DNA from: Gemmatimonadales bacterium
GTDB taxonomy: Bacteria > Gemmatimonadota > Gemmatimonadetes > Gemmatimonadales > GWC2-71-9
DNA: 64,000 nucleotides
Assembly (NCBI GenBank): GCA_036741715.1
Contig: DAINRR010000005.1
Coordinates: 25,203 to 89,202 of the forward strand
Direction: 5' to 3'
Shown: one piece after another, positions 5,411 through 63,625 of the stretch
Layout of the letters: each line of letters begins with the position of its first letter
Position numbering within the stretch: the first letter of the stretch is position 1
Translations under genes and position numbers: made by a program
The notes under the pieces: model-generated
Told to the model about the DNA's origin: nothing
Database searches by the model: none
Seen by the model: only the letters and a program-made list of their open reading frames with translations

Positions 5411-5518
5411 CGGTCTCTCCGGGTCGGATGAATGTCGTGATCTCACGATCCTCCCGGAATCTATTCCCCGGCCGGACATCGGACGTGCCGGCCCGGGGTG
5501 GCTGGACGTCCTCCGGGT

Positions 5519-8622: not shown

Positions 8623-9152
8623 CCATCACGCTCCCGCCGGAACAGCATCTGGAGGTCCGCGCTGCGCTTCCCGGGCTCACGCTCGCCGTGATCACCCTGC
8701 TCTTCGGCTTCGGGCTCGGCATCGTCTTCGGGCTCAACGAGGACGCGATCAAGTCACGTTTCGTCGCGTCTGCCGCCGCCGTACAGGAAACGGTCTACCG
8801 GGGCGATTCGGCCGCGGCGAAGCCCGTGCTCGACAAGTCGTGGAGCTACGCCCAGCGCGCCCACCTGCATGCCGGCAGCCTCGGTGCGTCGGGGATCGCA
8901 CTCACGGTCACGCTGCTCCTGATCGGCACGGGCCCCGGCCTCACGCGGGTACTGTCCCTCGCGTTCGGAATCGGCGGACTCGGCTACTCGGCCTTCTGGC
9001 TGCTCGCGGCGTTTCGGGCACCCGGGCTCGGCAGCACCGGAGCCGCGAAGGAGTCACTCGCCTGGCTGGCGATGCCCTCGGCGGGACTCTTCGTGGCGGC
9101 AACGGCGGTGGTGGCGCTCCTCTGCCTTCGCGGGCTCTTCCGGCGGCGGTAG
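8619..9152 (+). CDS. membrane protein (4 predicted TM segments), unknown function
   Basis: Its ATG overlaps the stop of the hemerythrin gene (ATGA at 8619-8622). Hydrophobic segments include LTLAVITLLFGFGLGIVFGL, IALTVTLLLIG, LGYSAFWLLAAF, LFVAATAVVALLCL. Confidence 0.7.
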   Translation: MTITLPPEQHLEVRAALPGLTLAVITLLFGFGLGIVFGLNEDAIKSRFVASAAAVQETVYRGDSAAAKPVLDKSWSYAQRAHLHAGSLGASGIALTVTLLLIGTGPGLTRVLSLAFGIGGLGYSAFWLLAAFRAPGLGSTGAAKESLAWLAMPSAGLFVAATAVVALLCLRGLFRRR

Positions 9153-32528: not shown

Positions 32529-34820
32529 ATGAGCACCTCCCCCGCAATCCATCTCAGGCTCTTCGGGAGCCCCTCGCTCGAGCGGGAGGACGGGAGTGTG
32601 CTCGCAGGGCGCGCCGCCCAGCGGCACCGCCTCGCCCTCCTCGCCCTCCTCTCGCTCGCCCCCGGTCATCGCATCAGCCGCGACAAGCTCATGGCCTGGC
32701 TCTGGCCCGAGGCCGACGGCAAGCGTGCGCGCAATCTGCTCAACGTCTCGACGCATGTGCTGCGCGGCGTTCTCGGCGAGACCTCGATCGTCTCGGCGGG
32801 TGAGGACCTGCGACTGGATGTGGCCGCGGTGCGGCCGGACGTGGCCGAATTCGAGCGCGCGATGCAGGCGGGAGACGAGGAGAGCGCGGTCGCACTCTAT
32901 CGCGGACCGTTCCTGGACGGGTTCTTCCTCCCCGAGGCGGAGGAGTTCGACCAGTGGAGCGGCCGGGAGCGACAGCGGCTGGCCGATATATATGGAAAGG
33001 CACTCGAGGGTCTGGCCGAGCGGGCCGAAGCCGCCGGTGACTTCGGCACCGCGGCCGTGCGGTGGCGCGCGCGGGCGGCGCACGATCCGCTGGATTCGCG
33101 CGTTGCCCTTCGCCTGATGCGGGCGCTCGATGCCAGCGGAAATCCGGCGGCCGCGATTCAGCACGGGGCGGCGCATGCCCGCCTCCTGAGCGAGGAACTC
33201 GGCTCGAGCGCCCCCGAAGTCACCGCCCTGTCTGACCACCTTCGCCGCCATCCCCGGCCCCATCCGTTCCCGGAACGGCCCGTCATCGGCAGCCCGGCGT
33301 CGGAAGCGCCGACACCCGTGCCGGCGCACGAGGCCCCTCGGCCGCGGCAGCTTCCATTCCCCCGCTGGGCAGCCGCTGCAGCCCTCGCCGTCGTCGCGCT
33401 GTCGTTCACTGCCTGGCTCGCCGTTGCCGGCGCGCCCGCGGCCGATCCGTCGATCGTCGTCCTGCCGTTCGCGAATCTCGCGCCCGGCGCGGCCCCCGAT
33501 TATCTGAGCGACGGGCTCACCGACGAGATCATCGCCGGCCTGGCGACCGTCCCGCGACTCACCGTCATCGCGCGCAATTCCGCAGACCGCTATGCGAGCT
33601 CCGTGGCCACCCTTCCGGAGATCGCACGCGAGCTCGGCGTCTCGCATGTGCTCCATGGCACGGTCCGCCCGGAGGGAGGCCAGGTACGGGTCACGGCGCG
33701 TCTCGTCGCGGCCGAGCGGGAGCGCGTCGTGTGGGCGCAGACGTACGATGCGCGCGAGGGGCAGCTCGCGCGGATTCAGGACGACATCGGGCGGGATGTC
33801 GTGCGCGCGCTCAAGCTCGAGCTGGTGGGGGACAGCGCGCCGGCGCAGCGGGGCACGCGCAATCCAGAGGCGTACGAGCTCTACCGCCGGGGACGGTTCC
33901 ATTGGGCCACGCGCACCCGCGAAGGTCACGAGGCGGCCATCGCCTATTTCGAGCGCGCGATCGCCCTCGATTCGAACTACGCGGATGCGTACGCGGCGCT
34001 CGCCGACGCCCACCTCACGAGCCGGCGGCTCGGCATGAGCCCGCACTCGGAGGAGGAAGCCCAGGCGCTGGTGACGCGCGCCGCGGAACGGGCGCTCGCG
34101 CTCGACGACGCATCGGCCGACGCGCACAACGCCTTCGCCAACGTCCTCTGGTGGCAGAAGAACTGGCCCGGCGCGGAGCGGGAGCTCCGGCGCGCACTCG
34201 AGCTCAACCCGAACCATGCCGGTGCGCACAACTTCTATGCACTCCTCCTCCACGGCATGGGCCGCCAGCAGGAAGCGCTGAGCGAGGCCCGGCGCGCCGC
34301 CGAGCTCGATCCGTTCGCGATGATGGTCGTCATGACCTACGGCTTCCTGTGTTACGTGACGGACGACCTGGAGTGCGCGATCGAACAGTTCGACCGGGTG
34401 GTCGAGCTGAACCCCGCATGGGGAATCGCCCTGCGCCGCAAGGCGATCGTACAGGCCATGCTGGGGCAGCACGCCGAGGCGCAGGCGAGCATTCGCCAGG
34501 CTCATGAAGTCGAGCCGGACAATGCGTACGGGCTCATCGATCGCGCGATCGTTCTCGCCCTCGCCGGCGATACCGCCGCTGCGCGAGCCGCGCTCCGGGC
34601 TGCGGAAGGCGCCACGGGATCGACCGTCGACTTCAATCTCGCGCGGGCCTACACCACCCTCGGCGACCGGGACAGCGCCTTCGCGGCCCTCGAGCGCTAC
34701 GATGGCTGGCTCTGGCCCGGCGTCAGCGCGCTCGCCGAGCCGCTGTTCGATCCGATCCGCACCGATCCGCGGTTCGTGGCGCTGGAAGACCGGGTGCTGC
34801 GGGAAATGGGCGTGAGGTAG
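32529..34820 (+). CDS. SARP/BTAD-family transcriptional regulator: winged-helix + BTAD + TM + periplasmic TolB_N-like + TPR domains
   Basis: 'LRLFGSPSLE...QRHRLALLALLS...SRDKLMAWLWPE' is the OmpR-type wHTH. 'FERAMQAGD...YRGPFLDGF...EFDQWSGRERQRL' is the BTAD. One TM segment is AAALAVVALSFTAWLAV. 'VVLPFANL...LSDGLTDEIIAGL' and TPR repeats follow. Confidence 0.9.
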   Translation: MSTSPAIHLRLFGSPSLEREDGSVLAGRAAQRHRLALLALLSLAPGHRISRDKLMAWLWPEADGKRARNLLNVSTHVLRGVLGETSIVSAGEDLRLDVAAVRPDVAEFERAMQAGDEESAVALYRGPFLDGFFLPEAEEFDQWSGRERQRLADIYGKALEGLAERAEAAGDFGTAAVRWRARAAHDPLDSRVALRLMRALDASGNPAAAIQHGAAHARLLSEELGSSAPEVTALSDHLRRHPRPHPFPERPVIGSPASEAPTPVPAHEAPRPRQLPFPRWAAAAALAVVALSFTAWLAVAGAPAADPSIVVLPFANLAPGAAPDYLSDGLTDEIIAGLATVPRLTVIARNSADRYASSVATLPEIARELGVSHVLHGTVRPEGGQVRVTARLVAAERERVVWAQTYDAREGQLARIQDDIGRDVVRALKLELVGDSAPAQRGTRNPEAYELYRRGRFHWATRTREGHEAAIAYFERAIALDSNYADAYAALADAHLTSRRLGMSPHSEEEAQALVTRAAERALALDDASADAHNAFANVLWWQKNWPGAERELRRALELNPNHAGAHNFYALLLHGMGRQQEALSEARRAAELDPFAMMVVMTYGFLCYVTDDLECAIEQFDRVVELNPAWGIALRRKAIVQAMLGQHAEAQASIRQAHEVEPDNAYGLIDRAIVLALAGDTAAARAALRAAEGATGSTVDFNLARAYTTLGDRDSAFAALERYDGWLWPGVSALAEPLFDPIRTDPRFVALEDRVLREMGVR

Positions 34821-34832
34821 CCGCAGCACCAC

Positions 34833-34872
34833 TCGCCTGCCGCCGCCGGCGCGGGTCGGCAGAGGCAGGCGA
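34833..34872. terminator. GC-rich hairpin between convergent genes (candidate bidirectional terminator)
   Basis: TCGCCTGCC (34833-34841) pairs with GGCAGGCGA (34864-34872), and an inner GCCG...CGGC pairing is possible. It lies between the stop at 34820 (+) and the stop at 34881 (-). There is no clear U-tract. Confidence 0.4.
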
Positions 34873-34880
34873 GCGCCGGG

Positions 34881-35492
34881 TCAATGTACCCGCACCTCGC
34901 CGGTCATTCCCGCGTGCAGGTTGCACCGATACGGGAAGATGCCGCTGCTGGCGAAAGTGCGGCTCGCCGACGTGTTCTGGATCGGCGGGATGTCCGACGG
35001 GGCGCCCGCCGAGGTGAAATCCACGTCATGCTGGACGGCGGCGATCGTCCACGTCACTGCCCCTCCTGCCGCGATATCCACGACCCTCGGTGAAAAGAGC
35101 GTTTGGGGCGCCGTCACCGTCGCGGTGGCGGAAGCGGCTTCGACCGTCACCTGGGTCGTGCCGGTCGCCGTCGCGCCACCCAGGGTAATCGAGGCCGTGA
35201 TCTGCGCCATCCCGGGACCGACGCCCGTCACGGTCCCGTCTTCCGCGACGGTCGCCACGGCCGGGGCGCTGGTGGTGAACCCGAGGTCGCCTCCGCTTAC
35301 CGGCTGGCCATCGTCGTCCCGACCCACCACGGTCAGCTTGACCGTATTGCCGGGCGCGGCCGAGAAGAGCTCCGCTGCGTCGGGCGTGACATCGACGGTG
35401 GCGAGACCGCCACCCCCGCCGGGGCCGCTTTCCCCGCCGCACGCGGACACGAGGACGAGCACGATCGAGGCGAGAAGGAATCGAGCAGACAT
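34881..35492 (-). CDS. lipoprotein: Big_2 (bacterial Ig-like) domain + type-1 copper cupredoxin domain
   Basis: GGAGG before the ATG and lipobox 'VLVLVSAC'. Big_2 block is 'VTLTVVGRDDDGQPV...TVTGVGPGMAQITASI'. Cupredoxin ligands are 'VQHDVDF' ... 'YRCNLHAGMTGEVRV' (C-x2-H-x2-M). Confidence 0.85.
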   Translation of the reverse strand: MSARFLLASIVLVLVSACGGESGPGGGGGLATVDVTPDAAELFSAAPGNTVKLTVVGRDDDGQPVSGGDLGFTTSAPAVATVAEDGTVTGVGPGMAQITASITLGGATATGTTQVTVEAASATATVTAPQTLFSPRVVDIAAGGAVTWTIAAVQHDVDFTSAGAPSDIPPIQNTSASRTFASSGIFPYRCNLHAGMTGEVRVH

Positions 35493-35708
35493 GGTAACCT
35501 CCGGGGTTCAGAAGCCGTGGTATGCCACGCCGCCGGCACCGAGCCGGCAGGCGACGCGACATATTCGGCGCCCCCGGTGAACGGCCGCTGTCGGGCGGCT
35601 GTACCACCGGTGAACTCGGAGGATTGGGGGTAAGGCGGGTCCGGGAGGGAGGATGCAGGGAGGGTGCGGGTCGAAGCCGAGCGCGCGGGACGGAACTGGG
35701 GGAACCGC

Positions 35709-36596
35709 TCAGTCCCCCCGCGATGCGAGAAGCCGCTCCACCCCGCCGATCCCTCCATCGCCCCGCCACTCGAGCCGGCCGTCAGGCCCGAGCACGAAGA
35801 CCGTGGTCGCATGGTCCACGTCGCCGGTCGTCTCGTTGCGCCGCCGCGCGACCCCGAGGCTGTCGAGGACGGACTCGACGTCCTCGACCGTGCCGGAAAG
35901 AACGCGATCATTGGGACCCAGTTCCCAGTGCCGGGCCAGTGAGACCAGGCGCTCGGGGGTGTCCCGCCAGGGGTCGAGCGTGACGACGATGAGTGCGACG
36001 TCGGGGCGGTTCGAGCGCCGGCGGGCGGCACGGAGGTCGTTGACGACCAGCGGGCAGACCGTGGCGCAGTGGCCGAAGGCGAAGGTGACGAGTGCGGGAC
36101 GGCCCCGCCACTCCCCCAGGGAATAGCGCCGTCCATGCTGGTCCACCAGCCGGACGCCCGGCGCCTCGTGCTCGGCCGGACGCAGCGTGGCGAGATCCGG
36201 CGCGTACGCGACCCGCCCGCCTTCCCACGCCCGCGCAACACGCACACCGAGTGTGAGGGTGCCCACGACGGATGCCGCCGCCACGGTCAGTCCCGCGATG
36301 CGACGCCAGGGCGAAGCCCCCAGCCACGCCAGGTCGCGCCGGAGCCCGCGATTCCCGATGGCGAGGAGCATCCCGAGCATCCCGAAGGGCTCGCCGATCA
36401 GGATGATCCAGCCGCGCGTGTCCGGCAGTCCGCCCCGTTCCGATCCGAAGCACGCGGCGCGCGTCCGGGTAAGCCACTCCGGCTCCGCGGTCGCGGGCCA
36501 GAGCGCGAGCGCCCACCACGCTGCGGTGATCACGAGGATCGCCACGAGTGCGGTGAGCGCGAGCCCGGGCCGCTCGTCGCGGCCCGTCGCGTCCAT
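35709..36596 (-). CDS. SCO1/SenC-family copper chaperone fused to an N-terminal 3-TM domain
   Basis: Thioredoxin-fold block 'ALVTFAFGHCATVCPLV' (CxxxC) and 'DHATTVFVLGPDG'. Its ATG overlaps the subunit I stop by 1 nt (TGATG at 36594-36598). Confidence 0.85.
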   Translation of the reverse strand: MDATGRDERPGLALTALVAILVITAAWWALALWPATAEPEWLTRTRAACFGSERGGLPDTRGWIILIGEPFGMLGMLLAIGNRGLRRDLAWLGASPWRRIAGLTVAAASVVGTLTLGVRVARAWEGGRVAYAPDLATLRPAEHEAPGVRLVDQHGRRYSLGEWRGRPALVTFAFGHCATVCPLVVNDLRAARRRSNRPDVALIVVTLDPWRDTPERLVSLARHWELGPNDRVLSGTVEDVESVLDSLGVARRRNETTGDVDHATTVFVLGPDGRLEWRGDGGIGGVERLLASRGD

Positions 36597-38344
36597 CAGC
36601 CGATTCTCCAGAGGAAGCTCAGCAGCTTCCAGTTGGTGAAGTAGTAGAGCATGAAGGCGAGGAAGAAGATGCCCACGAGCACGAGCGTGCCGGGCGTCGG
36701 GCCGGCCCAGCCGCGCGCGGGGGCGTGCAGCTCTTCATTGAGCGCATCGGCGCCCGGGCCGTGCACTGGCGGGTTGGTGAGCCCCTGGGGAATACCGCGG
36801 ATCGGCTTCCCGCGCGGGAACTCGGTCACGCGCTCGCCAAAGAACACCGACGTGACCGCGATCAGGATGAAGGCGAAGGCCCCCGTCGCCGCGATGACGC
36901 CGCCGATTCCGACCATCGCCATGAAGAGGTCCACCACCGGGCTGAACGGCACGTCGTGCGCCGACTGCGCAAAGCTGATGTCCCAGTGCCGGCGCGGGAC
37001 GCCGAAGCTGCCGGCGAACGTCATGCCGAACTCGAGGAGCAGCAGCCCGCCGGCGAACAGGTACGGCTGGATCTTCGCGAGCCCCCAGAACGCCACCTTC
37101 CGCTGGAAGATGAGCGGCAGGAGGTAGTAGGTCGCGCCCATGAAGGCCACGGCCGTGCCGCTCACCACCGTCGCATGGAAGTGGCCCGGAATGCGCAGCG
37201 TGTTGTGCGCGATGATGTTGATCTGCTCGGTGCCGATCGTGACGCCGGTGATCCCGCCGAAGAAGCCGAACACGACGACCGAGAGCACGAGCGACGAGAA
37301 GCCGGGGTCGCCCCAGGGCGCCTTGCGCAGCCACTCGAACAGTCCCTTCGTGTACCCGCGCAGTCGCATGCCGAGCTCGAGCCCGGCCGGCACCGTGAAC
37401 CCGTGGATCATCGACGCCAGCACCGCCATGTACATGAAGTAGGAGGTGTTGACGATCTTCCACGCCGGCCCGAAGCCCGGGTCCACGAGGAGGTGGTGCG
37501 CCGAAGCCATCGAGATGAAGAGGATGTAGAGCACGAAGGCCCATCGGCTCACCTTCTCGTTCAGCACGACCGCACCCACGGTGAGCGCACCCAGCATGTA
37601 CCAGATCGCCACCATCGCCGCGACGTTGATCTGCTGGGCCGAGTGCCCGAGCCCCCACCAGAGGAGCCGGTACATCTGGGGATTGACGCTGTCGACGAGG
37701 CCGATGGACCAGAGGAAGGTGGGGATGTAGACCATCGCCCCATGGAGCAGCGTGATGACGGCGATGATGGCCGCGGTCATCGCGCCGTAGACGACGAGCG
37801 GCATCGATCCTTCGTACGTCCGCTCGCGCTTCGCGATCGTGAGCGTCACGAAGAACTGGCCCACGACGCTCAGCGCGCCGACGGCGAAGAGGATGATGCC
37901 GAGATAGAAGAGCGGGTGCGCCTTGAGCGGCGGATACGAGGTGTAGAGCACGTCCGCCTTGCCGCTCCACTGCATCGCCTCGACCATCAGCGACCCGACC
38001 ACCATCAGCCCGAAGTTGAACCAGCCGTACCGCGGTGCCGCGGGTCGCGCGTTGAGCAGCACCGTGGCCGCGAACCAGAGCACCGCCATCTCGAAGAAGA
38101 TGATGAAGAAGATCAGCATGTTCATCCCGTGCACGCCGAGAATGCGGTAGTACCACTCGGCGGGCAGGAGATGGATCGCCTGCCAGCGGGTCAGCGCGAG
38201 GAGCAGGGCCGCAACGGCGCCGATCAGGAGCGCCACCACCGACACCACGGCGTTCGCGCGGATGAGGCGCTCCGCCTGCAGGTCGATGCGCCGGGTCGTG
38301 ATCGGGCAGGTCCGCACGGGGCGCTCGAGGGCCGTCGTGGTCAC
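36596..38344 (-). CDS. heme-copper oxidoreductase subunit I, ba3 (B-family)-like but lacking the helix-VI cross-link tyrosine
   Basis: Start is GTG 38344 (GGAGG 6 nt upstream), overlapping the subunit II stop (GTGA). Blocks 'YYRILGVHGMN', 'VLYTSYPPLKAH', 'LWWGLGHSAQQ', 'SAHHLLVDPG', 'NTLRIPGHFHATV' run collinear with ba3 subunit I. The track ORF 36596-39004 over-extends the N-terminus. Confidence 0.9.
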   Translation of the reverse strand: MTTTALERPVRTCPITTRRIDLQAERLIRANAVVSVVALLIGAVAALLLALTRWQAIHLLPAEWYYRILGVHGMNMLIFFIIFFEMAVLWFAATVLLNARPAAPRYGWFNFGLMVVGSLMVEAMQWSGKADVLYTSYPPLKAHPLFYLGIILFAVGALSVVGQFFVTLTIAKRERTYEGSMPLVVYGAMTAAIIAVITLLHGAMVYIPTFLWSIGLVDSVNPQMYRLLWWGLGHSAQQINVAAMVAIWYMLGALTVGAVVLNEKVSRWAFVLYILFISMASAHHLLVDPGFGPAWKIVNTSYFMYMAVLASMIHGFTVPAGLELGMRLRGYTKGLFEWLRKAPWGDPGFSSLVLSVVVFGFFGGITGVTIGTEQINIIAHNTLRIPGHFHATVVSGTAVAFMGATYYLLPLIFQRKVAFWGLAKIQPYLFAGGLLLLEFGMTFAGSFGVPRRHWDISFAQSAHDVPFSPVVDLFMAMVGIGGVIAATGAFAFILIAVTSVFFGERVTEFPRGKPIRGIPQGLTNPPVHGPGADALNEELHAPARGWAGPTPGTLVLVGIFFLAFMLYYFTNWKLLSFLWRIG

Positions 38345-38946
38345 AGGGCACCTCCATGCTCGATGCCGGCCGGCTTGTCGGCCACGGTGTTCCCGACCGA
38401 GTCCACCACGATCACGCGGCCCACCATCGTGTGGTGGCCGATCCCGCAGAACTCGTTGCAGATGATGCGGAAATCGCCGGACGAGGTGGGCGTCACGCGC
38501 AGGGCGTAGTCGAAGCCGGGCACGACGGCGAAGTTGATGTTCAGCGGATAGAGCGAGAAGCCGTGGTTCACGTCGAGCGCGGAGAGGTGGAGCATGTACT
38601 CCTTCCCCTGCTCGAGCTGCAGGATCGGATACCACTGGTAGGTGAGCCCCACGAGATAGACATCGGCGCCCGGCGGCGGCGCGGCGATCGGCATGCCGGC
38701 GTCGGTGCCGATCTCGTACTGCTTCGCGAACTCCACCGTGCGCTGGTAGAAGGCGCGGGGCTCCACGCGGCTCCGGACGCCGGCCGGATTCTGTCCCCCC
38801 TTCCAGTGCCAGAGCGGCATCATCGCGAAGAGCACGATGCACCAGGCGAACGCGATCGAGACCCAGATCCGCTCCGCCTTGTGCGCCGGTTTCCACCACA
38901 CGCCCGGGACCGGATCGATACCGGTATGGACCTTGGTCAGCGGCAT
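38341..38946 (-). CDS. heme-copper oxidoreductase subunit II with CuA centre
   Basis: One TM segment (IWVSIAFAWCIVLFAMMPLW). CuA ligands are 'DVNHGFSL' and 'ICNEFCGIGHHTM' (C-x-E-x-C-G-x2-H-x2-M). GGAGAA lies before the ATG. Confidence 0.9.
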   Translation of the reverse strand: MPLTKVHTGIDPVPGVWWKPAHKAERIWVSIAFAWCIVLFAMMPLWHWKGGQNPAGVRSRVEPRAFYQRTVEFAKQYEIGTDAGMPIAAPPPGADVYLVGLTYQWYPILQLEQGKEYMLHLSALDVNHGFSLYPLNINFAVVPGFDYALRVTPTSSGDFRIICNEFCGIGHHTMVGRVIVVDSVGNTVADKPAGIEHGGAL

Positions 38947-38955
38947 GCCGTTCTC

Positions 38956-39129
38956 CTAGGGAAGCGTGGCGGCGGGGAGGGAGACGATCTCCCAGAGGCC
39001 CCACCCGGTGAAGACGACGAGCATCACGAGCACGCCGAGGAAGAGCAGCAGGTACATGTTGTCGAAGACGCGCTGGCCGAGCGGGATCCGCTCACCGGCA
39101 TCGTCGTGGGGAGGGACTGACGGATCCAT
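38956..39129 (-). CDS. 57-aa single-TM peptide upstream of subunit II (not in ORF track)
   Basis: Hand translation gives ATG 39129 ... TAG 38958-38956. The product is MDPSVPPHDDAGERIPLGQRVFDNMYLLLFLGVLVMLVVFTGWGLWEIVSLPAATLP. GAGG lies 6 nt upstream and overlaps the Rrf2 stop region. It is packed 9 nt from both neighbours. It falls below the track length cut-off. Confidence 0.6.
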   Translation of the reverse strand: MDPSVPPHDDAGERIPLGQRVFDNMYLLLFLGVLVMLVVFTGWGLWEIVSLPAATLP

Positions 39130-39138
39130 GCGGCTACC

Positions 39139-39582
39139 TCACTTGGGTGAGCGGGTCAGGGCGTGCAGTCGGTGCCGTCTGGTCGCGACCGAATCCTCGA
39201 GCAGCGTGGCGATGGTCGTGGTGGTGAAATAGTTCTCGACCGTGCTCGCGACTTCGCTCCAGCGGGCGTGGGCCGCGCAGGGATTGCGGTCGCCGCAGGT
39301 CGGGCGGCCAAGCAGGCAGCGGAGGCCCGGCCGGGAGAAGGGCGCGATCACCACGGCCAGCGTCAGACGCTCGGGAGCGTGCGCGAGCCGGAAGCCACCG
39401 CGAGGGCCTCGCTCCGACGTCAGGACGCCGGCGCGCGACAGTGCGTGCAGGACCTTCGAGAGGTAGTTCCGCGGGAAGCCGGTCGCTGCCGCGATGCCGT
39501 CCACGCGGAGCGGCTCCCCACCCTCCCGCGCAACACAGAGGACGGCGTGAATCGCCTGCTGGGCCGTGCTGGAAAGCCACAT
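39139..39582 (-). CDS. Rrf2-family transcriptional regulator with three-Cys Fe-S cluster motif (NsrR/IscR-like)
   Basis: wHTH block 'AQQAIHAVLCVAREGGEPLRVDGIAAATGFPRNYLSKVLHALSRAGVLTSERGPRGGFRL'. Cys motif is 'RCLLGRPTCGDRNPCAAH' (C-x6-C-x5-C). Confidence 0.9.
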   Translation of the reverse strand: MWLSSTAQQAIHAVLCVAREGGEPLRVDGIAAATGFPRNYLSKVLHALSRAGVLTSERGPRGGFRLAHAPERLTLAVVIAPFSRPGLRCLLGRPTCGDRNPCAAHARWSEVASTVENYFTTTTIATLLEDSVATRRHRLHALTRSPK

Positions 39583-39611
39583 TCGATCGATGTCCGGGGG
39601 GAGGTACTGGA

Positions 39612-39633
39612 TTTATCATGCATTCATGATAAA
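39612..39633. promoter_or_regulatory. perfect 9-4-9 AT-rich inverted repeat, candidate Rrf2 operator in the divergent intergenic region
   Basis: TTTATCATG (39612-39620) - CATT - CATGATAAA (39625-39633). It lies in the 53-bp gap between Rrf2 ATG 39582 (-) and TTG 39636 (+), the only AT-rich patch locally. Confidence 0.5.
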
Positions 39634-39635
39634 CT

Positions 39636-41228
39636 TTGCGCAAGACCCTCGTGCGAATCCTTGAACGCGGTGCCCGACGCCTCCTCGGCGCTCTCGACGC
39701 CGGCGCCACCCGTGCCTGGGGATGGCGCTGGAATCCGCTGCACCAGAGCGGCACCATCGCCGTCGCCATGCTGCTGGCGCTCCTGGCGACGGGCATCTAC
39801 CTCGTCTTCGTCTATCGCGTCGGCGCTCCCTCCGCGTCCGTGGCTCGCATCGCCGCCGACCCGTGGCTCGGCGGCTGGATCCGGAGCCTGCACCGCTACA
39901 CGTCCGATCTCTTCATCGTCGCCGCGGCGCTCCACTTCCTCCGCATGTTCGCGCAGGCACGAAGCTGGGGCCCGCGCCGGCTCGCGTGGATCTCGGGTCT
40001 GATGCTGCTCGGCGCCGGCCTCGTCTGCGCCTGGACCGGCTTCGTGATGGCGTGGGACAGCTTCGGCGAGCGCCTCGCGCGCGAAGGGGCGCGGCTGCTC
40101 GACCTGCTCCCTGTGCTGTCGGAACCGCTGAGCCGCCTCTTTGCGGGAGACCGGCCGCTGCCGGACGCGTTCTTCTTCGTCAACCTCTTCGTGCACATCG
40201 GGCTGCCGCTCGCGATGGGAGCCCTCCTCTGGCTGCACGTCTCGCGCGTCGCGCGACCGGTGCTGCTGCCGCCGAAGCGCATCACGTGGACGATCCTCGC
40301 GGCGCTCACGGTCACCGCAGTGCTCCTTCCTGCCCCGCTCGGTCCGGCAGCCGATCCGTTCCGGCTTCCCTTCGACACGCCGACCAATCTCTTCTCCGCC
40401 TGGTGGCTGCCGTTCACCGAGCGGATGTCGCGCGGCGCCGTGTGGGGCGTCGGGCTGGGCCTGTCCGTCGCGCTCCTGCTCGTGCCGCGATTCACGCGGC
40501 GGCCGCGCGTCGAGCGCTGGGCGCCGAGCGTCGTGGATCCGCGGCTCTGTACCGGGTGCAACCAGTGCCCGCAGGACTGTCCGTGGGATGCGATCACGAT
40601 GGTCGAGCGGGACGACGACCGCCCGTCGCTCGTGGCGCTCGTGAATCCGGCGCGCTGCGTGAGCTGCGGCATCTGCGCCGGCTCCTGCCCGCCGATGGGC
40701 GTCGGGCCCCCGGGACGTACCGGGCGGGATCAGCTCGCTGCGGCGCGGGTGGTGATCGGTGCGGGGCTCGGGGACGCGGGGCGCGAGGGGGTGGGGGCGG
40801 GCAGTATCGTCGCCATCTGCTGCAGCATGGCGCCCGATTCCCATGTGGTGGCCCTCCGCGAGCGTGGCGCACACGTCCACCAGGTCACGTGCGTCGGCAA
40901 TCTCCATTCGTCGGTCGTGGAGACGTTCGTGCGGAGCGGCACGCCGGGAGTGGTGATCTGCGGTTGCCCGCCGCGCGACTGCGTCGGCCGCGAGGGGCCG
41001 AAGTGGCTGCACGAGCGCCTGTTCAACGCGCGCGAGGCCGAGCTCAAGCCGCGGGTCGATCGCCGGCGCGTCCGGACACTGACGCTCGCGCCGGGCGCGC
41101 GCGGCGAGGCACTTGCCGGGTACGACGCCATCGCACGCGATTTCGCGGCGCTCGATCTGCCGGGCGCCGAGCAGGTCGAGCCGGATCTCGTGTGCGTTCC
41201 GGTGCCGCTGGAGGAGGAGGATCGATGA
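39636..41228 (+). CDS. fusion protein: di-heme cytochrome b (N-terminal domain type) + 2x[4Fe-4S] ferredoxin + MvhD/FlpD-like domain
   Basis: Heme ligand pairs are 'SLHRYTSDLFIVAAALHFL' and 'FVHIGLPLAMGALLWLHV' (each H-x13-H). Two further TM segments follow. Then come 'CTGCNQCPQDCP' and 'CVSCGICAGSCP', then 'IVAICCSMA...VTCVGNLHSSVVETFVRSGTPGVVICGCPPRDC'. The start is uncertain (TTG 39636; GTG 39651 is possible). Confidence 0.85.
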   Translation: MRKTLVRILERGARRLLGALDAGATRAWGWRWNPLHQSGTIAVAMLLALLATGIYLVFVYRVGAPSASVARIAADPWLGGWIRSLHRYTSDLFIVAAALHFLRMFAQARSWGPRRLAWISGLMLLGAGLVCAWTGFVMAWDSFGERLAREGARLLDLLPVLSEPLSRLFAGDRPLPDAFFFVNLFVHIGLPLAMGALLWLHVSRVARPVLLPPKRITWTILAALTVTAVLLPAPLGPAADPFRLPFDTPTNLFSAWWLPFTERMSRGAVWGVGLGLSVALLLVPRFTRRPRVERWAPSVVDPRLCTGCNQCPQDCPWDAITMVERDDDRPSLVALVNPARCVSCGICAGSCPPMGVGPPGRTGRDQLAAARVVIGAGLGDAGREGVGAGSIVAICCSMAPDSHVVALRERGAHVHQVTCVGNLHSSVVETFVRSGTPGVVICGCPPRDCVGREGPKWLHERLFNAREAELKPRVDRRRVRTLTLAPGARGEALAGYDAIARDFAALDLPGAEQVEPDLVCVPVPLEEEDR

Positions 41229-41848
41229 TCCGAAGCGCCGGCCGGAGCATCGCGACGATCGTCGTCAGCGCGGCCGCCGCGATGGGTATTGCCGCCGGAT
41301 CGGGGGTCGCGGTGCCGTACCACGCCGATGACGCCGCGCGCCTCCGGCTCTCATGGAGCGCGCGGCCGGAGCGGATCGAGCAGTGCCGCACGCTGTCCGA
41401 AGAGGAGCTCGCGCTCCGGCCGGAGCACATGCGCCAGCGCATCGAGTGCGAGGGCGGCTTCGCGACCTACGCGCTGGCGATCGCGATCGACGGCCGGCGG
41501 GTCGACGAGGCGGTGCTCCTGGGCGGCGGTGTTCGCAACGACCGGCCGATCCACGACCTCAGGGACCTCGATGTCTCGCCCGGCCGGCACCGGGTGCAGA
41601 TCTCACTCACGCGGCGCGAGGCCGATGCGTCGGGAGACGAGGACGACGATGAGGATGACGACGACGATGCCGGCATCTCCGCCGACCGCGCGCAGCGCGA
41701 GCGGACGGAGCGCACGCGCCGCCAGCGCGCGGCGCTTCCGGCGGCGGTGACGCTCGATACGACGATGGTGCTTGAGGCCGGCCGGGTCGCGGTCATCACC
41801 TTCGATGCCGGGCGGCGCAGCTTCATGATCGTGCCGGGTGCGCCCTGA
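41225..41848 (+). CDS. membrane-anchored hypothetical protein with poly-acidic insert
   Basis: ATG 41225 overlaps the stop of the cytochrome b fusion (ATGA). N-terminal anchor is IATIVVSAAAAMGIAAG. Acidic run is 'SGDEDDDEDDDDDAG'. This is only the last 207 codons of track ORF 39722-41848. Confidence 0.65.
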   Translation: MIRSAGRSIATIVVSAAAAMGIAAGSGVAVPYHADDAARLRLSWSARPERIEQCRTLSEEELALRPEHMRQRIECEGGFATYALAIAIDGRRVDEAVLLGGGVRNDRPIHDLRDLDVSPGRHRVQISLTRREADASGDEDDDEDDDDDAGISADRAQRERTERTRRQRAALPAAVTLDTTMVLEAGRVAVITFDAGRRSFMIVPGAP

Positions 41849-43807
41849 GCTCGCCAACTTCGCCAGCCGGAACGCCACGACGTAGTCCCCTTCCCCGAAC
41901 GGCCCCCCTCCCCCGACCGCGATCGCCACGAACTGCTCGCCGGTCGCGAGCTGCCACGTCATCGGCGTCGCCTTCCCGCTCTCGGGAAGCGGGCCGCGCC
42001 AGAGCTCGCGTCCGCTCTCGATGTCGTACGCCTTGAGCGAGCGATCGAGCGCTGCGCCGATGAAGACCAGGCCACCCGCCGTCGTGATCGGGCCGCCGAG
42101 GTTGATCGAGCCCCAGTCGGGCGGCAGCGGTGTGCCCTCCGGAACCAGGCGCTCGAGCGAGCCGAGCGGGACCGTCCAGCGATGCTTTCCGGTGTCGAGA
42201 TCGATCGCGACGAGCGCGCCGAACGGGGGCGGGGTGCACGGAAGGCCGGATGGCGCGCGCAGCAGGCGCCGCCGCATCACGTACGGCGTCCGGCTCATGA
42301 TGTTGTATTCGTAGCCCAGGCCGAGCCGCTCGCTCTCCGCCTCCGCCGCGTCGAAGTCCACCGACTCGCGCGGAAGCAGCTGCACTTCGGCCGCGATGCG
42401 ATTGACGGGCACGACGGCGATCCGCCGCACCGGGTCCCACGCGAGCCCGCCCCAGTGCGCGCCGCCGATGTTGGACGGCATGACGAGCGTGCCCTGGGTG
42501 TCCGGAGGCGTGAAGATCCCCTCGTTCCGGAGCGGCGCGATCATGGCGCGACAGGCCGCACGGTCCGCCTCGGCCGCGCCCCAGGCGTCGTCGGCCGTGA
42601 AGGCGTGCGGACTGAGCGGCGCGATGCCCGTCGTGAACGGCTGCGTCCGCGACGCCTCCTCACCGGGGATCCGGCTTGCCGGCACGGGGCGCTCTTCGAC
42701 GGGAAAGAGCGGCTCGCCGGTTTCGCGGTGCAGCACGAAGAGCATGCCGGTCTTCGTCGCCTGCAGCACGGCGGGGACCTCGACGCCATCGCGCACGAGC
42801 ATCACGAGCGCAGGCGGGGCCGCGTTGTCGTAGTCCCAGAGATCGTGGTGCACGCTCTGGAACGACCAGACGCGCTTGCCGGTCGAGGCGCGGAGTGCCA
42901 CGAGCGAGTTGGCGTAGCGGTTGTCCCCGAGCCGGAGCGCCCCGTAGTAGTCGGGCGCGGCGCTGCCGGTCGGAATGAAGACGAGATCGCGCTCGGCGTC
43001 CGCCACCAGGACCGACCAGGCGTTGGCTCCGCCGGTTCCGTGCGCGAGCTTGCCGCGCCAGTCGCCGAAGGCGGGGTCGGCCGAATCCTGCGGAATCGGG
43101 TCCCAGCTCCAGCGCAACGCGCCGGTGCGCGCGTCGTACGCCCGCACCTCGCCGCTCGGCAGGTCGGGGCGGGTGTTGTCGCCGATCGACGAGCCGGTGA
43201 TCACGAGATCGTTCACGACCGCGGGCGGCGACGTCATCGTGTACGCCGCCGGCTCGAACGGCGCGATGCGGAGGCCGCGCGTGAGGTCCACGATGCCGTT
43301 CTCACCGAACCGGCGGCAGACCGACCCGCTCGCCGCGTCGAGCGCGATGAGCTGCGACTGCGCGGTCGCGACGAAGATGCGGCGGCGGCACGGCGCGCCG
43401 CTTGCCGCCTTCGGATCCACCCACAGCGATACGCCGCGGCTCGCGAAATCTCCATAATCGACATCGCGGCGGATCTTCGGGTCGTAGACCCACCGTTCGC
43501 GGCCCGTCGCGGCGTCGAGCGCGATCACCCGGCCGAGCGGCGTGCCGATGTACATCAGACCCTCGTGCACGAGAGGCGTCGCCTCGAAGGAGGCAGGGGT
43601 CGACGTGGCGTAGGCGGGCCCCGACTCGCCCGTGCGGTACGTCCATGCGACGTGCAGGCGAGTCACGTTCTCGCGAGTGATCGCGGCCGCGGGCGAGTGG
43701 CGCGTGCCGCCGGCGTCGCGACCGTTCGCTTCCCAGCCGATTTCCTGCGCGGCGGCGGACGCGTTGACGGTGATCAGGGCGGCCGCGAGAGTGATCAGGC
43801 ATTTCAC
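41603..43807 (-). CDS. PQQ-dependent dehydrogenase (quinoprotein glucose/alcohol dehydrogenase family), secreted
   Basis: Propeller blocks are 'TRHSPAAAITRENVTRLHVAWTYRTG', 'EATPLVHEGLMYIGT', 'GANAWSVLVADAERDLVFIPTGSAAPDYYG', 'SVHHDLWDYD', 'GGAHWGG', 'LKAYDIESGRELW'. Start set to GVG-type GTG 43807 ((M)KCLITLAAALITVNASAAAQE, GGAGCG upstream). The track start is 43852. The last roughly 86 codons (41606-43863 region end, i.e. 41606-41863) are a doubtful extension; see findings. Confidence 0.85.
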   Translation of the reverse strand: MKCLITLAAALITVNASAAAQEIGWEANGRDAGGTRHSPAAAITRENVTRLHVAWTYRTGESGPAYATSTPASFEATPLVHEGLMYIGTPLGRVIALDAATGRERWVYDPKIRRDVDYGDFASRGVSLWVDPKAASGAPCRRRIFVATAQSQLIALDAASGSVCRRFGENGIVDLTRGLRIAPFEPAAYTMTSPPAVVNDLVITGSSIGDNTRPDLPSGEVRAYDARTGALRWSWDPIPQDSADPAFGDWRGKLAHGTGGANAWSVLVADAERDLVFIPTGSAAPDYYGALRLGDNRYANSLVALRASTGKRVWSFQSVHHDLWDYDNAAPPALVMLVRDGVEVPAVLQATKTGMLFVLHRETGEPLFPVEERPVPASRIPGEEASRTQPFTTGIAPLSPHAFTADDAWGAAEADRAACRAMIAPLRNEGIFTPPDTQGTLVMPSNIGGAHWGGLAWDPVRRIAVVPVNRIAAEVQLLPRESVDFDAAEAESERLGLGYEYNIMSRTPYVMRRRLLRAPSGLPCTPPPFGALVAIDLDTGKHRWTVPLGSLERLVPEGTPLPPDWGSINLGGPITTAGGLVFIGAALDRSLKAYDIESGRELWRGPLPESGKATPMTWQLATGEQFVAIAVGGGGPFGEGDYVVAFRLAKLASSGRTRHDHEAAPPGIEGDDRDPAGLKHHRRIERHRRRKRRALAARALRPLALRAVGGDAGIVVVILIVVLVSRRIGLAPRE

Positions 43808-43824
43808 GAATGCACGCTCCGGTC

Positions 43825-44754
43825 TCAGTGCAGAGGCTTCTCGTAGCGCCACACCGTGATCGCCACGATCCCTTCAGGCGTCGTCAGGTTGCTCACGACC
43901 TCGCCCGTCCGGCGCCATCCGCTCTTCTCGTAGAAACGGGCGGCGCGATGGTTGCCGATGGCGCAGTCGAGCCACGCCACGGTGAAACCCCGCGCCACGA
44001 GCTGCCGTTCCGCGTCGGCGATGAGCGCGGAGGCCACGCCGGCGCCTCGGGCGCGGGCCGAAACGTAGAGCTGGTTCAGCTCGCCACCCTTCAGCATGTG
44101 AAACCCGCGCGGATCGCGGGGCGGGCCGGCAACGCGGACATCCGATAGGGCCGCCGAGAGGCGTTCCGCGAACCGCTCCGGGGTACGATCGCGCTTCAGC
44201 TCCTCGGGGAGGATGGCAGCGTGGGCATCCTGCCAGCCGTCGAACCAGAGGGCGGCCAGGGGCTCGATGTCAGCGGGGCTCGCGTCGCGGACGGCGACGC
44301 TGCCCTCGACGAGTCGCGCCAGCTTCCCCAGCGACAGCCGCCAGCCGAGCTCGTTGTCGGCCGGCGACAATCCGGAAGGAAGCCCGGCGTGGACAGCGAC
44401 GAGCTCGGTCCCGCCATCCCGATCGGCGAGCGAGAACGTCACCGTCATTTCGCCCTGCATCGTCGGATCCTGCGTTTCGAACTCGACGGTGTGCACGACC
44501 CGCTCGCCGGGCACGAGCTCGAGGTAGCGCCCGTGCCAGGTATCGGTGTGTGCGGTGGTCTTTCCCGCCGGCCCGGGCTCGTCATAGGTGAGCGAGACGC
44601 GGATCCGCCCGCCCGCGCGCGTATCGAGCTCGTGCACTTCGCTCGACATGCCGTCGGGGACCATCCAGGCGCGCAGCGACTCCGCCTCGACGAGGGCGCG
44701 GTAGACGGCGCTGCGCGGAGCGGCAATATGCCGGATGAGGCGAGTCGATGACAT
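43825..44754 (-). CDS. fusion of SRPBCC/AHSA1-like domain and GNAT acetyltransferase domain
   Basis: The N-terminal half has 'RHIAAPRSAVYRALVEAESLRAWMVPDGM...VTFSLADRDGGTELV'. The C-terminal half has 'LYVSARARGAGVASALIADAE...NHRAARFYEKSGW'. Start is ATG 44754 (the track uses TTG 44760). Confidence 0.85.
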   Translation of the reverse strand: MSSTRLIRHIAAPRSAVYRALVEAESLRAWMVPDGMSSEVHELDTRAGGRIRVSLTYDEPGPAGKTTAHTDTWHGRYLELVPGERVVHTVEFETQDPTMQGEMTVTFSLADRDGGTELVAVHAGLPSGLSPADNELGWRLSLGKLARLVEGSVAVRDASPADIEPLAALWFDGWQDAHAAILPEELKRDRTPERFAERLSAALSDVRVAGPPRDPRGFHMLKGGELNQLYVSARARGAGVASALIADAERQLVARGFTVAWLDCAIGNHRAARFYEKSGWRRTGEVVSNLTTPEGIVAITVWRYEKPLH

Positions 44755-44763
44755 CGGCAACTC

Positions 44764-46860
44764 TCACTCGAGATTCATCGCGCGCATCAGCGCCTGGAAC
44801 CGCGGATGCTCGCGGAGCGGCACGAAGAGAAACGATCCCTTGATGCTGTAGGTCGGTCCCGTGCGATCGGCAACCGCCCGCTCGAGGTAATCGAGCGCCC
44901 GGTCCGGTTCACCGAGGCCGGTGTGGATGTAGGCTAAATGGTATGGCGAGACGAACTCCCGCCCGGCGCGCTCCTCGAGCTCGCGGAGGAGCGCGCGCGC
45001 TTCCGCGACCCGGCCATCCATGCCGAGCATTTCCCCGAGCTGCGCGACCCAGAGCGGCGTCCGCGCCGAGCATTCGACGGCCCGCTCCAGCTCGGCGATG
45101 CCGCCTTCGCGGTCGCCGGTGAGGAAGCGGGCCCAGCCGAGGGTTGCGCGGGCGCGCGGGTGGTCCGGCTCGACCTCGACGACCTGCCGGACGTTCACGA
45201 GCGCCTCATCATACCGCCCGGCGCGGAGGAGCATCGTGGACATGTCCGTTCGATTCGCGGCCGGATCGAGCTCCTGCGCCTGCCGGCCGAGCGGGATCGC
45301 TTCCTCGAACCGGCCCGTCGCCCAGCAGAGGCGCGCCAGAAGATCGATCGCGTACCCGCTGCCGGGGCTCAGCTCGACGGCGCGCCGCAGCCCCGCCTCG
45401 GCCGTGCGCCAGTCGAAGTCCGCGACCATCCTCAGGTAGCCCCGGGTGGCGTGCGCGTCGCTCAGGTCGGGCGCGAGCTCGAGGGCGCGCGCCGCGGCGA
45501 CGGTGGCGCACGCGAAAAGCTCCTTGGTCGGCCTCGCCGCCAGCTCCGCAAGCTCGACGAACGTCATCGCGAGGAGCGAGTGCGCGAGGGCGAATCCGGG
45601 ATCTCGCGCGATCGCCGCCCCGAGCAGCGTCACGGCGCGCTCCATTTCGGGCGCCGTGAACTGGATGAACGCCTGCCGGCCCCGGAGGAAGAGGCGGTAC
45701 GCCTGGATGTCCTGCGTCGGCTCCGCGCGCACGCGGCCCCGCTCGTCGGGGGAGAGCTCGGCCCGGAGCGCGGCGGCGATCTGCAGCGCGAGGTCGGTCT
45801 GGATCGCGAAGATGTCGCTGATCTCGCGATCGTAGGTCTCGCTCCAGAGGGGCCGCCCCGACGCCGCATCCAGGAGCGTCGCCACGACGCGCACGCGATT
45901 CCCCGCATGACGCACGCTGCCATCCAGGACGGTCCGGACGCCGAGCGCCGCGGCGATCTCCCCGACCGGTCGGTCGCGGGAGCGGAACGGCATGACGGAC
46001 GATCGGGCGATGACGCGCAGCGACCGGATCTTCGAGAGATGCGCAATCACGTCCTCGGTGACGCCGTCGGCGAAGTACTCCTGCTCGCCGGCGCCTCCGA
46101 GACCGAGGAACGGCAGCACCGCCACGGATGGCATCGGGGCCGCCGCCGCGGGGGCGCGGCGCAGCTCGTCGGCAAGCGCCTGCACCGCGGGCTCGGGCGG
46201 AAGTTCGAGGTCCTTCCGCACGCGGTGTGCGTGATCCGCGGCATGACGGAGCGCGGCAGGACGGTCACCCCCGGCGTCGAGGGCGCGCATGAGGCGGCAG
46301 GCGTGGTGGGCGGAGTGCGGATCGAGTGCGGCCAGCCGGCGGGCCGCAGCGAGGCGCGCAGCGATGTCGCCCGACCGCTCCGCGGCGTCGCCGGCCGCGA
46401 CAAGGATGCGCGCGTATTCCGCGGCGAGCTGGCTCCGCCGCGCATCGAGCCACTGCATGAACTCGGACGACTCGGGGAGATGGAACCCCTCGAGGAGCGT
46501 GCCGGCGTACGCCTGTGTGGCGGCTTCCGCATCGCGGGCGGCGAGCGCGGCGCGGAGCTCGTGGAAGTCGCACTGGACGCCGGCGGGCTCGAAGACGAGA
46601 CCATCCCCTACCGACCGGATGACCCCTTCGCCGAGCGCGCCGCGGAGAACGTGGACGGAAAGGTTGAGGAGCCGCCGGGCGGCCGCATCGTCGCGCTCGG
46701 GCCAGAGGAGTGCGAAGGCGCGATCGCGGGCGAGCGGCCGCGGCCAGGCGTCAATGACGAGCGTGAGGAGTGCAACGCGGTGGCGCTGCGACGGCGGGCC
46801 GCTCAGCACCGTGTCGCCGGCGCGGAGGCAGGCCCCGCCGAGGAGGGAGATCGCAATCAT
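44764..46860 (-). CDS. SARP/BTAD-family regulator with periplasmic TolB_N-like and TPR domains (paralogue 2)
   Basis: wHTH 'QRHRVALLTLVIDAWPRPLARDRAFALLWPE', BTAD 'FHELRAALAARD...YAGTLLEGFHLPESSEFMQWLDARR', then 'VAVLPFLGLGG...FADGVTEDVIAHL' and TPR repeats. Confidence 0.9.
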   Translation of the reverse strand: MIAISLLGGACLRAGDTVLSGPPSQRHRVALLTLVIDAWPRPLARDRAFALLWPERDDAAARRLLNLSVHVLRGALGEGVIRSVGDGLVFEPAGVQCDFHELRAALAARDAEAATQAYAGTLLEGFHLPESSEFMQWLDARRSQLAAEYARILVAAGDAAERSGDIAARLAAARRLAALDPHSAHHACRLMRALDAGGDRPAALRHAADHAHRVRKDLELPPEPAVQALADELRRAPAAAAPMPSVAVLPFLGLGGAGEQEYFADGVTEDVIAHLSKIRSLRVIARSSVMPFRSRDRPVGEIAAALGVRTVLDGSVRHAGNRVRVVATLLDAASGRPLWSETYDREISDIFAIQTDLALQIAAALRAELSPDERGRVRAEPTQDIQAYRLFLRGRQAFIQFTAPEMERAVTLLGAAIARDPGFALAHSLLAMTFVELAELAARPTKELFACATVAAARALELAPDLSDAHATRGYLRMVADFDWRTAEAGLRRAVELSPGSGYAIDLLARLCWATGRFEEAIPLGRQAQELDPAANRTDMSTMLLRAGRYDEALVNVRQVVEVEPDHPRARATLGWARFLTGDREGGIAELERAVECSARTPLWVAQLGEMLGMDGRVAEARALLRELEERAGREFVSPYHLAYIHTGLGEPDRALDYLERAVADRTGPTYSIKGSFLFVPLREHPRFQALMRAMNLE

Positions 46861-63389: not shown

Positions 63390-63625
63390 CGTGAATTGTC
63401 GGGAATGCGGGGATGATTCGACGTACCGTTTCAATGTACCGCGCCCGACCGCGCCCCGCTCGCGGCCGCGCGGCGACGCCGGCACACCCTGCCTAACACC
63501 TTCGCGCACACACACTTCGCTCAGGTGAAATCCAGGCGAAGCCGAGGTGAGCGCGCCTCGTAGCATTCCCTCGTCGGTCGACGGCACTTCCGCCGCCGCC
63601 CCGCCACCATCACGACGAGGGCACC

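Follow-up and report, generated by a model that had tools for sequence, protein, structure and literature searches.

A Gln-bearing B-family heme-copper subunit I in a Gemmatimonadales bacterium as a likely eNOR-type nitric oxide reductase

The locus described here raises the question of which reaction is catalysed by a protein that carries all the metal ligands of a ba3-type (B-family) oxygen reductase, while the tyrosine of the active-site cross-link is replaced by glutamine. The gene encodes subunit I of a heme-copper oxidoreductase (HCO) and lies in a stretch of 64,000 nucleotides from a Gemmatimonadales bacterium (phylum Gemmatimonadota; assembly GCA_036741715.1, contig DAINRR010000005.1, positions 25,203 to 89,202 of the forward strand); this 64-kb stretch, hereafter the window, is our view of the genome. 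In databases, the gene and its relatives are mislabelled as cytochrome oxidase (cbb3). On the basis of sequence comparison, we consider it likely that its product is the catalytic subunit of an eNOR-type nitric oxide (NO) reductase, with the module and the mechanism proposed below. The protein very probably belongs to the eNOR family, and there is good reason to expect that NO reduction is the main physiological activity of the enzyme.

Active site and family of the subunit I protein

Subunit I matches the Pfam COX1 family (E=9.7e-63), and its top solved structures in a HMMER search of the PDB are the B-family ba3 oxidases of Aquifex (7DEG) and Thermus (1XME/1EHK), at E~1e-48, while A-family oxidases appear at E=1e-7 or worse; no NOR chain, including those of cNOR and qNOR, and no cbb3 chain is among the PDB matches at E<=1e-3. 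The initial annotation had described the protein as collinear with ba3 subunit I and as keeping all six canonical heme and metal histidines, and both statements hold: the blocks YY..L..HG, VLYT.YPPLK.H, WW..GH, HH...DPG and PGHFH are seen in the HMMER alignments, and a MAFFT alignment pairs every ligand with its ba3 counterpart (query=ba3: H72=H72, H234=H233, H283/H284=H282/H283, H388/H390=H384/H386). The H-x3-Y motif of the B-family cross-link is absent, and the query reads H234-S-A-Q-Q238 at this place. Both HMMER and MAFFT align Q238 with the cross-link tyrosine Y237 of ba3 and Q237 with V236, so that GHSAQQ stands opposite GHPVVY in the Aquifex protein and GHPINY in the V236N mutant of ba3; the loss of the tyrosine from this motif had been claimed from the sequence alone. 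Other substitutions relative to ba3 are Y244->V245, T312->H314 and F272->Y273. In the DNA, the helix-VI active-site residues are contained in the motif WWGLGHSAQQINV (37660..37622, minus strand), of which 37660..37625 reads TGG TGG GGG CTC GGG CAC TCG GCC CAG CAG ATC AAC; the Gln238 codon is CAG (37633..37631, minus strand) and is two base changes away from a Tyr codon.

The replacement is shared by 240 database homologues, collected in two sets. The closest 120 database homologues are 82-98% identical to the query, those with a name being Gemmatimonadales, Gemmatimonadaceae or Gemmatimonas, and S[AS]QQ is present in 120/120; a second set (n=120), seeded with a Thermomicrobium protein and made up mostly of Chloroflexota and metagenome proteins, has G[AT]QQ in 120/120. 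Homologues of the first set are 581-592 amino acids long and span 98-100% of the 582-residue query. With QQ in 240/240 homologues, and also across four bacterial phyla plus one haloarchaeon, the change from Tyr to Gln is a fixed trait of the family and not an error. Among GTDB species genomes, at least 491 loci with relatives were detected by a scan; the best 80, nearly all proteobacterial, were kept, six of them from Accumulibacter, and 79 of these 80 carry GHxxQQ[IV]N, although the scan had used this motif as one of its two search patterns. The same motif occurs in plasmid relatives found by tblastn in Defluviimonas (53% identity), on the Thermomicrobium roseum megaplasmid (50%) and on Thermus thermophilus plasmids (44%), and the proteobacterial members are 49-56% identical to the query. 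The 80 GTDB loci and 5 plasmid loci together make up the 85 fetched loci in which neighbouring genes were counted, by tblastn at E<=1e-6. Full-length Q-bearing representatives at 50% clustering are few, and they include P0128 of the haloarchaeon Natrarchaeobius; the eNOR of SURF MAG 42 (RJP50323.1) was not found in the protein clusters looked up.

In a bootstrapped, unrooted neighbour-joining (NJ) tree of 45 sequences and 499 columns, a single bipartition unites the Q-bearing sequences in 98 of 100 bootstraps; it contains Accumulibacter, haloarchaeal, Thermus and Thermomicrobium members. The query lies with other Gemmatimonadota, adjoining P0121 and the proteobacterial/Accumulibacter group. 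In the homologue on the Thermus thermophilus plasmid pTthSNM6-6b (L001 11983..13668), the second His of the low-spin heme is exchanged for Lys (GHFK), the His/Lys variant that has been reported for some eNORs. This homologue adjoins a NirK-like multicopper protein bearing a cupredoxin at its C-terminus, a cytochrome P460, an Rrf2 regulator and a DUF542 protein. The nearest non-members are archaeal GH..QY proteins (P0125, P0126, P0130 and P0140; Hodarchaeales and Thermoproteota where named), which are 39-43% identical to the query and have Q237, H314, Y273 and the FFE motif in common with it, but differ in keeping the cross-link Tyr; they are paraphyletic around the Q-bearing clade in the NJ tree. 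'K family' O2 reductases have been said to cluster with eNOR (preprint 10.1101/592808), and the archaeal proteins are probably members of that family. To judge by their sequences, they look like the oxygen-reducing stock which could have given rise to eNOR via a single change from Tyr to Gln. More distant HCO representatives show other active-site strings, namely FH.xHY with the HH pair changed to YH (P0168, P0177, P0208, P0257, P0268), or GH.LQ[YF] with the HH pair missing (P0220, P0227, P0264), and these may be other NOR-like or uncharacterised families.

A Gln at the position of the cross-link Tyr is the diagnostic feature of eNOR (PMC8756737, section 2.7.1 and Table A4, after Hemp & Gennis 2008). 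According to the same table, this site is Asn in sNOR and Glu in cNOR, qNOR and nNOR. gNOR is marked by a change of one active-site His to Asp and by a subunit II devoid of CuA ligands. The active site of bNOR is the same as that of sNOR (Murali et al. 2024, PMC11214002). [quoted passage not shown] In the query, the six His, Gln238, a nearest relationship to the B family, an adjacent CuA subunit II and a predicted K-path with the S309 equivalent are all seen, and the grouping of the protein with Accumulibacter, haloarchaeal and His/Lys Thermus sequences in the NJ tree may point the same way. It has neither the Glu of cNOR, qNOR and nNOR nor the Asn of sNOR and bNOR at the Tyr-equivalent site, and lacks the traits of gNOR, since none of the three metal-site His and none of the CuA ligands is missing. 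Likewise, it does not resemble cbb3, as the sole helix-VII Tyr is at -10 relative to the HH pair and the partner subunit is a CuA protein instead of a cytochrome c. It had been suggested earlier from the sequence that this B-family derivative was likelier to reduce NO, or to perform another chemistry not involving O2, than to act as an oxidase; the suggestion is supported and can now be attached to a named family. Its companion suggestion, that the family might be new, is rejected, since eNOR as described is matched in the diagnostic Gln, in clade membership and in the operon.

The helix-VII tyrosine deserves separate consideration, for it had been raised in the initial annotation as a possible source of an alternative cross-link. 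It is indeed exactly 10 residues before the HH pair (Y273 relative to H283), as had been noted. In cbb3 enzymes, the helix-VII cross-link Tyr is 6 residues before the HH pair (Y251/H257 in P. stutzeri), and the four-residue shift from that register would place Y273 about one helical turn deeper. Position 273 is Tyr in 6/6 sequences of the Q-bearing clade and in 4/4 QY sequences, and is Phe, Leu or Ile in the B family. Because it is equally conserved in the relatives which retain the canonical Tyr, Y273 predates the change from Tyr to Gln and does not represent a compensating relocation; a relocated cross-link in the manner of cbb3 is therefore ruled out. No migrated Tyr was found in models of eNOR and the related NOR families (Murali et al., PMC11214002). 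Of the K-path residues of ba3, S309 (S311 in the query) and Y248 (Y249) are kept, as is E15 of subunit II (E25), whereas T312 is replaced by His314, Y244 by V245, and S261 by Asn, a position that is Asn or Ser across the Q-bearing clade. As the position of ba3 Y244 is Val, Ile or Ala in both the Q-bearing and the QY groups, Y273 may stand in for Y244 and probably belongs to the proton path. The K-type path thus appears to be conserved in the query as a putative channel.

Operon, divergent module and the rest of the window

The features of the locus are listed in Table 1. On the minus strand, the order is Rrf2 regulator, 57-residue peptide, subunit II, subunit I and SCO1/SenC, with 9-bp gaps or overlaps between the genes, and a 216-bp gap then leads to the cupredoxin gene. 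Subunit I starts with the GTG at 38344, which overlaps the TGA of subunit II (GTGA, a 4-bp gene overlap), and the start of the SCO1 gene overlaps the stop of subunit I, so that the chaperone is translationally coupled to it. The same gene arrangement is found in two other Gemmatimonadota contigs, L086 and L087. A scan for sigma-70 promoters and terminators over 34700..41900 gave nothing above chance.

Table 1. Positions in the window of the putative eNOR-type locus and associated features
Feature	Position	Strand	Evidence
Copper nitrite reductase NirK, lipoprotein-like N-terminus	4310..5479	-	PDB 3wi9/3wkq, TIGR02376
Lipoprotein-like Big_2 + type-1 cupredoxin (amicyanin-like C-x2-H-x2-M)	34881..35492	-	Pfam, NCBIfam
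SCO1/SenC copper chaperone, N-terminal membrane region	35709..36596	-	Pfam SCO1-SenC 4.5e-22
Predicted eNOR subunit I, 582 amino acids	36596..38344	-	Pfam COX1, ba3 best PDB match, residue mapping, Q-bearing clade
Tyr273 codon, helix VII (= ba3 F272)	37526..37528	-	Alignment
Helix-VI motif codons G233-H234-S235-A236-Q237-Q238	37631..37648	-	HMMER, MAFFT, DNA read
Predicted eNOR subunit II, 201 amino acids, one transmembrane helix + CuA cupredoxin domain	38341..38946	-	ba3 subunit II PDB, NCBIfam CoxB
Peptide of 57 amino acids, single transmembrane helix, upstream of subunit II	38956..39129	-	Open reading frame (ORF) + homology to Defluviimonas 60-residue ORF
Rrf2-family regulator, three Cys, first operon gene	39139..39582	-	Pfam Rrf2 3.4e-27
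Perfect AT-rich palindrome TTATCATG-N4-CATGATAA, probable operator	39613..39632	.	53-bp divergent intergenic region
Di-heme cytochrome b / 2x[4Fe-4S] / FlpD(MvhD) fusion, about 6 transmembrane helices	39636..41228	+	Pfam, PDB cytochrome b6 + HdrA
Protein of 207 amino acids, downstream of cytochrome b fusion	41225..41848	+	BLASTP

Subunit II has ba3 subunit II as its best PDB match (E=2.6e-18), with DVxHGF and CNxxCGxGHxxM aligned; all the CuA ligands (H128, C163, C167, H171, M174) are present, and E25 aligns with E15 of ba3 subunit II, the entrance of the K-path. Subunit II is matched in 82 of the 85 fetched loci, and a small ORF of about 60 residues, with the Defluviimonas protein as query, in 72. 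The 57-residue gene is at the same place in L086 and L087; its product, labelled simply 'hypothetical protein' on the plasmids, has no Pfam or NCBIfam match and may correspond to subunit IIa of ba3. Matches to SCO were obtained in 62 of the 85 loci, these being weak (22-35% identity) and of unverified position within the locus, and the SCO1 protein is likely to act as a CuA assembly factor. The Big_2-cupredoxin lipoprotein was not found in the other fetched loci and is known from the window only; a role as periplasmic electron donor is possible. Heme o synthase is matched in 69-70 of the 85 loci, and hemerythrin, which is found in proteobacteria, in 56. The common eNOR operon has been described as II-I-heme o synthase-sco1-'scaffold', with adjacent cytochrome b/Fe-S proteins that were seen as unusual (2026 Ferrigenium preprint), and the II-I-SCO1 order of the query fits this operon minus the heme o synthase.

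The Rrf2 gene is also at the same position in L086 and L087, and one further Rrf2 gene, as mentioned, adjoins the Thermus homologue. An identity with NsrR is unsupported at the family level, as the match is 23.6 bits against a cutoff of 182 (E 4e-5); from its sequence, the protein is a candidate for an Fe-S, NO-responsive repressor. The palindrome between the divergent units occurs just once in the window, where chance alone would give 0.01 matches, and is conserved in place in L086 (about 6047-6068) and L087 (about 8721-8744). It is the probable operator of the Rrf2 regulator, and since both transcription units flank one conserved palindrome beside the Rrf2 gene, their co-regulation is suggested.

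On the other side of the palindrome, the cytochrome b fusion protein has H-x13-H twice (H86/H100 and H187/H201) and two CxxCxxCxxxCP motifs (C305.., C341..), and its Fe-S domains are predicted to be cytoplasmic; a corresponding module is present at L002 13402..15497. The fusion is matched in 75 of the 85 fetched loci, the matches being weak (29-42% identity) and of unverified position within the locus. The 207-residue protein is homologous to a proteobacterial 172-residue ORF of eNOR clusters (34% over 91 residues, E=2e-9, BLASTP), which itself has matches in 68 of the 85 loci; in L086 and L087, its place is taken by a gene for 210-215 residues. That eNOR, the cytochrome b/Fe-S/FlpD protein and the 172-207-residue protein might form a larger module, in Gemmatimonadota and in most other eNOR hosts, coupling NO reduction to quinol or to cytoplasmic redox carriers, as a new NO-respiring supercomplex, is a speculative idea that we regard as doubtful. 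The cytochrome b/Fe-S/FlpD partner and the Rrf2 palindrome seem to be the sole under-explored parts of the system.

Elsewhere in the window, NirK is encoded 31 kb from the eNOR operon and matches the Geobacillus NirK structures 3wi9/3wkq at E=1e-67 and TIGR02376 with 195 bits; no nos, nar or nap genes were present among the window ORFs scanned. A PQQ-type glucose/sorbosone dehydrogenase (3134..4294, minus strand) adjoins nirK, and another PQQ-dependent dehydrogenase (41603..43852, minus strand; Pfam PQQ E=1e-222) is convergent with the end of the cytochrome b/207-residue gene pair. Three paralogous large regulators with winged-helix/BTAD and TPR segments, two of which have a FlgO-like segment, lie at 32529..34820 (plus strand), 44764..46860 (minus strand) and 61083..63587 (minus strand), one of them directly adjoining the eNOR region.

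Proposed mechanism and rival explanations

The enzyme would catalyse the overall reaction 2 NO + 2 e- + 2 H+ -> N2O + H2O. A periplasmic donor, perhaps a cytochrome c, perhaps a cupredoxin like the blue-copper lipoprotein encoded nearby, would reduce CuA, itself loaded by SCO1; from CuA, electrons would reach first the low-spin heme and then the centre formed by the high-spin heme and the non-heme metal (H234, H283, H284), a binuclear centre that is predicted to be lined by Q237, Q238 and N240. Because the redox-active Tyr is gone, the fourth electron for O2 reduction would be unavailable at such a site, yet a two-electron reduction of NO would be feasible. Protons would probably be taken up from the cytoplasm via a K-type path comprising E25 of subunit II, H314, S311, Y249 and perhaps Y273; uptake from this side would render the reaction electrogenic, adding to the proton-motive force. 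The Rrf2 regulator would probably control both divergent units through the conserved palindrome, and the distantly encoded NirK would serve as the source of NO.

Several points weigh against this interpretation. The characterised Rhodothermus marinus protein, Rmar_0161, is absent from our alignments and tree, and the tree is an unrooted one obtained by NJ only. eNORs use heme A(s) cofactors, and the genes ctaA and ctaB for heme A/O synthesis, which are common in eNOR operons without being a defining trait, were not found in the window by tblastn with heme o synthase queries, and the regulator matches the NsrR model weakly, as given above. Moreover, a single eNOR alone is proven to turn NO into N2O, with a low turnover of 0.68 NO per second (PMC11214002), and we found no published measurement of the identity of the non-heme metal or of proton uptake in any eNOR. 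The R. marinus enzyme did not, on the other hand, reduce O2 with any donor tested, and the organism, which has eNOR as its sole NOR, produces N2O and N2 (PMC11214002).

Against this background, three rival explanations have to be weighed. That the glutamine results from a sequencing or assembly error, or from the decay of a pseudogene, hardly merits belief: the frame is intact with coupled neighbours, a Tyr codon is two substitutions away from CAG, and the idea is refuted by the presence of QQ in all 240 homologues. A terminal B-family O2 reductase, using Tyr273 or another Tyr, or else a different mechanism, has several points in its favour: among solved structures, ba3 oxidases are the nearest, the enzyme retains an intact CuA site, both of its heme sites, the three His of the metal site and most of the K-path, helix VII does carry a conserved Tyr, and eNOR expression as well as heme A synthesis have been tied to microoxic conditions (PMC11214002). 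Nevertheless, Y273 is no replacement, given its equal conservation in the QY relatives with the canonical Tyr, and both the published models, which contain no migrated Tyr, and the R. marinus enzyme, which leaves O2 unreduced, speak against it (PMC11214002), making oxidase activity very improbable.

An eNOR-family protein might also serve here in NO detoxification or in other chemistry (NO dismutation, or turnover of peroxide or N-oxides), possibly together with the cytochrome b/Fe-S/FlpD protein. In favour of such a role, the one member that has been assayed is slow (PMC11214002), a generalized or detoxifying function has been deemed possible by other authors (PMC8756737; 2026 Ferrigenium preprint), no role in NO respiration has been assigned to the partner proteins (the cytochrome b fusion, the 172-207-residue protein and the proteobacterial hemerythrin), and none of nos, nar and nap is seen among the window ORFs scanned. 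The presence of a NirK gene in the window points the other way, as do the formation of N2O and N2 by R. marinus with no NOR other than eNOR and the eNOR transcripts or proteins seen under denitrifying conditions in Accumulibacter (PMC11214002) and Ferrigenium, where the proteins were detected (2026 preprint). In addition, the K-path is conserved, which speaks for an energy-linked enzyme. We therefore regard a non-respiratory role as unlikely, and retain eNOR-type NO reduction as the preferred explanation.

Relation to known systems

The eNOR family has been described, curated hidden Markov models for it exist, it is now routinely tallied in metagenomes, and one member has been characterised. 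The biochemistry is thus already known, and the host is the modestly new part of the present case. Gemmatimonadota are usually discussed as consumers of N2O, and phylum-wide surveys report NorBC or norB only, plus caa3, cbb3 and bd oxidases (PMC9426454, PMC10581226). As these two surveys report no other NO reductase, the capacity of the phylum for NO reduction may be undercounted, and its cbb3 oxidases might be overcounted. Given the NirK gene in the window, the organism would produce N2O from nitrite.

With the eNOR family, including Rmar_0161, the 'cytochrome a1-like hemoprotein' of Magnetospirillum and the Accumulibacter, Ferrigenium and haloarchaeal members, the query shares a B-like subunit I, the six His and the Gln site, as well as a CuA subunit II directly upstream, the Ser, Tyr and subunit II Glu of the K-path, and SCO1 in the operon. 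It differs from other eNORs in its Gemmatimonadota host, in an operon that begins with Rrf2 and is without heme o/a synthase, and in a cytochrome b/Fe-S/FlpD gene that is divergent instead of downstream. With the ba3 oxidases of T. thermophilus (1XME/1EHK) and Aquifex aeolicus (7DEG), it has in common the ligands, the CuA subunit II, possibly a small third subunit, and Y248, S309 and E15 of subunit II; unlike them, it is without the His-Tyr cofactor, and O2 reduction is therefore not expected. bNOR (qCuANOR of Bacillus azotoformans) and sNOR are, like the query, derived from B-family oxidases, with subunit II homologues of the CuA type and conservation of proton-channel residues (PMC11214002), but carry Asn (in sNOR, bNOR having the same active site) where the query has Gln. 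cNOR and qNOR, such as NorBC of P. aeruginosa, resemble the query in the three-His heme/non-heme centre, in the absence of the cross-link Tyr and in the reaction catalysed, and are set apart from it by a Glu ligating FeB and by a cytochrome c subunit or quinol site in place of CuA; no conserved cytoplasmic proton channel is described for them, the evidence for qNOR being ambiguous (Murali et al., PMC11214002).

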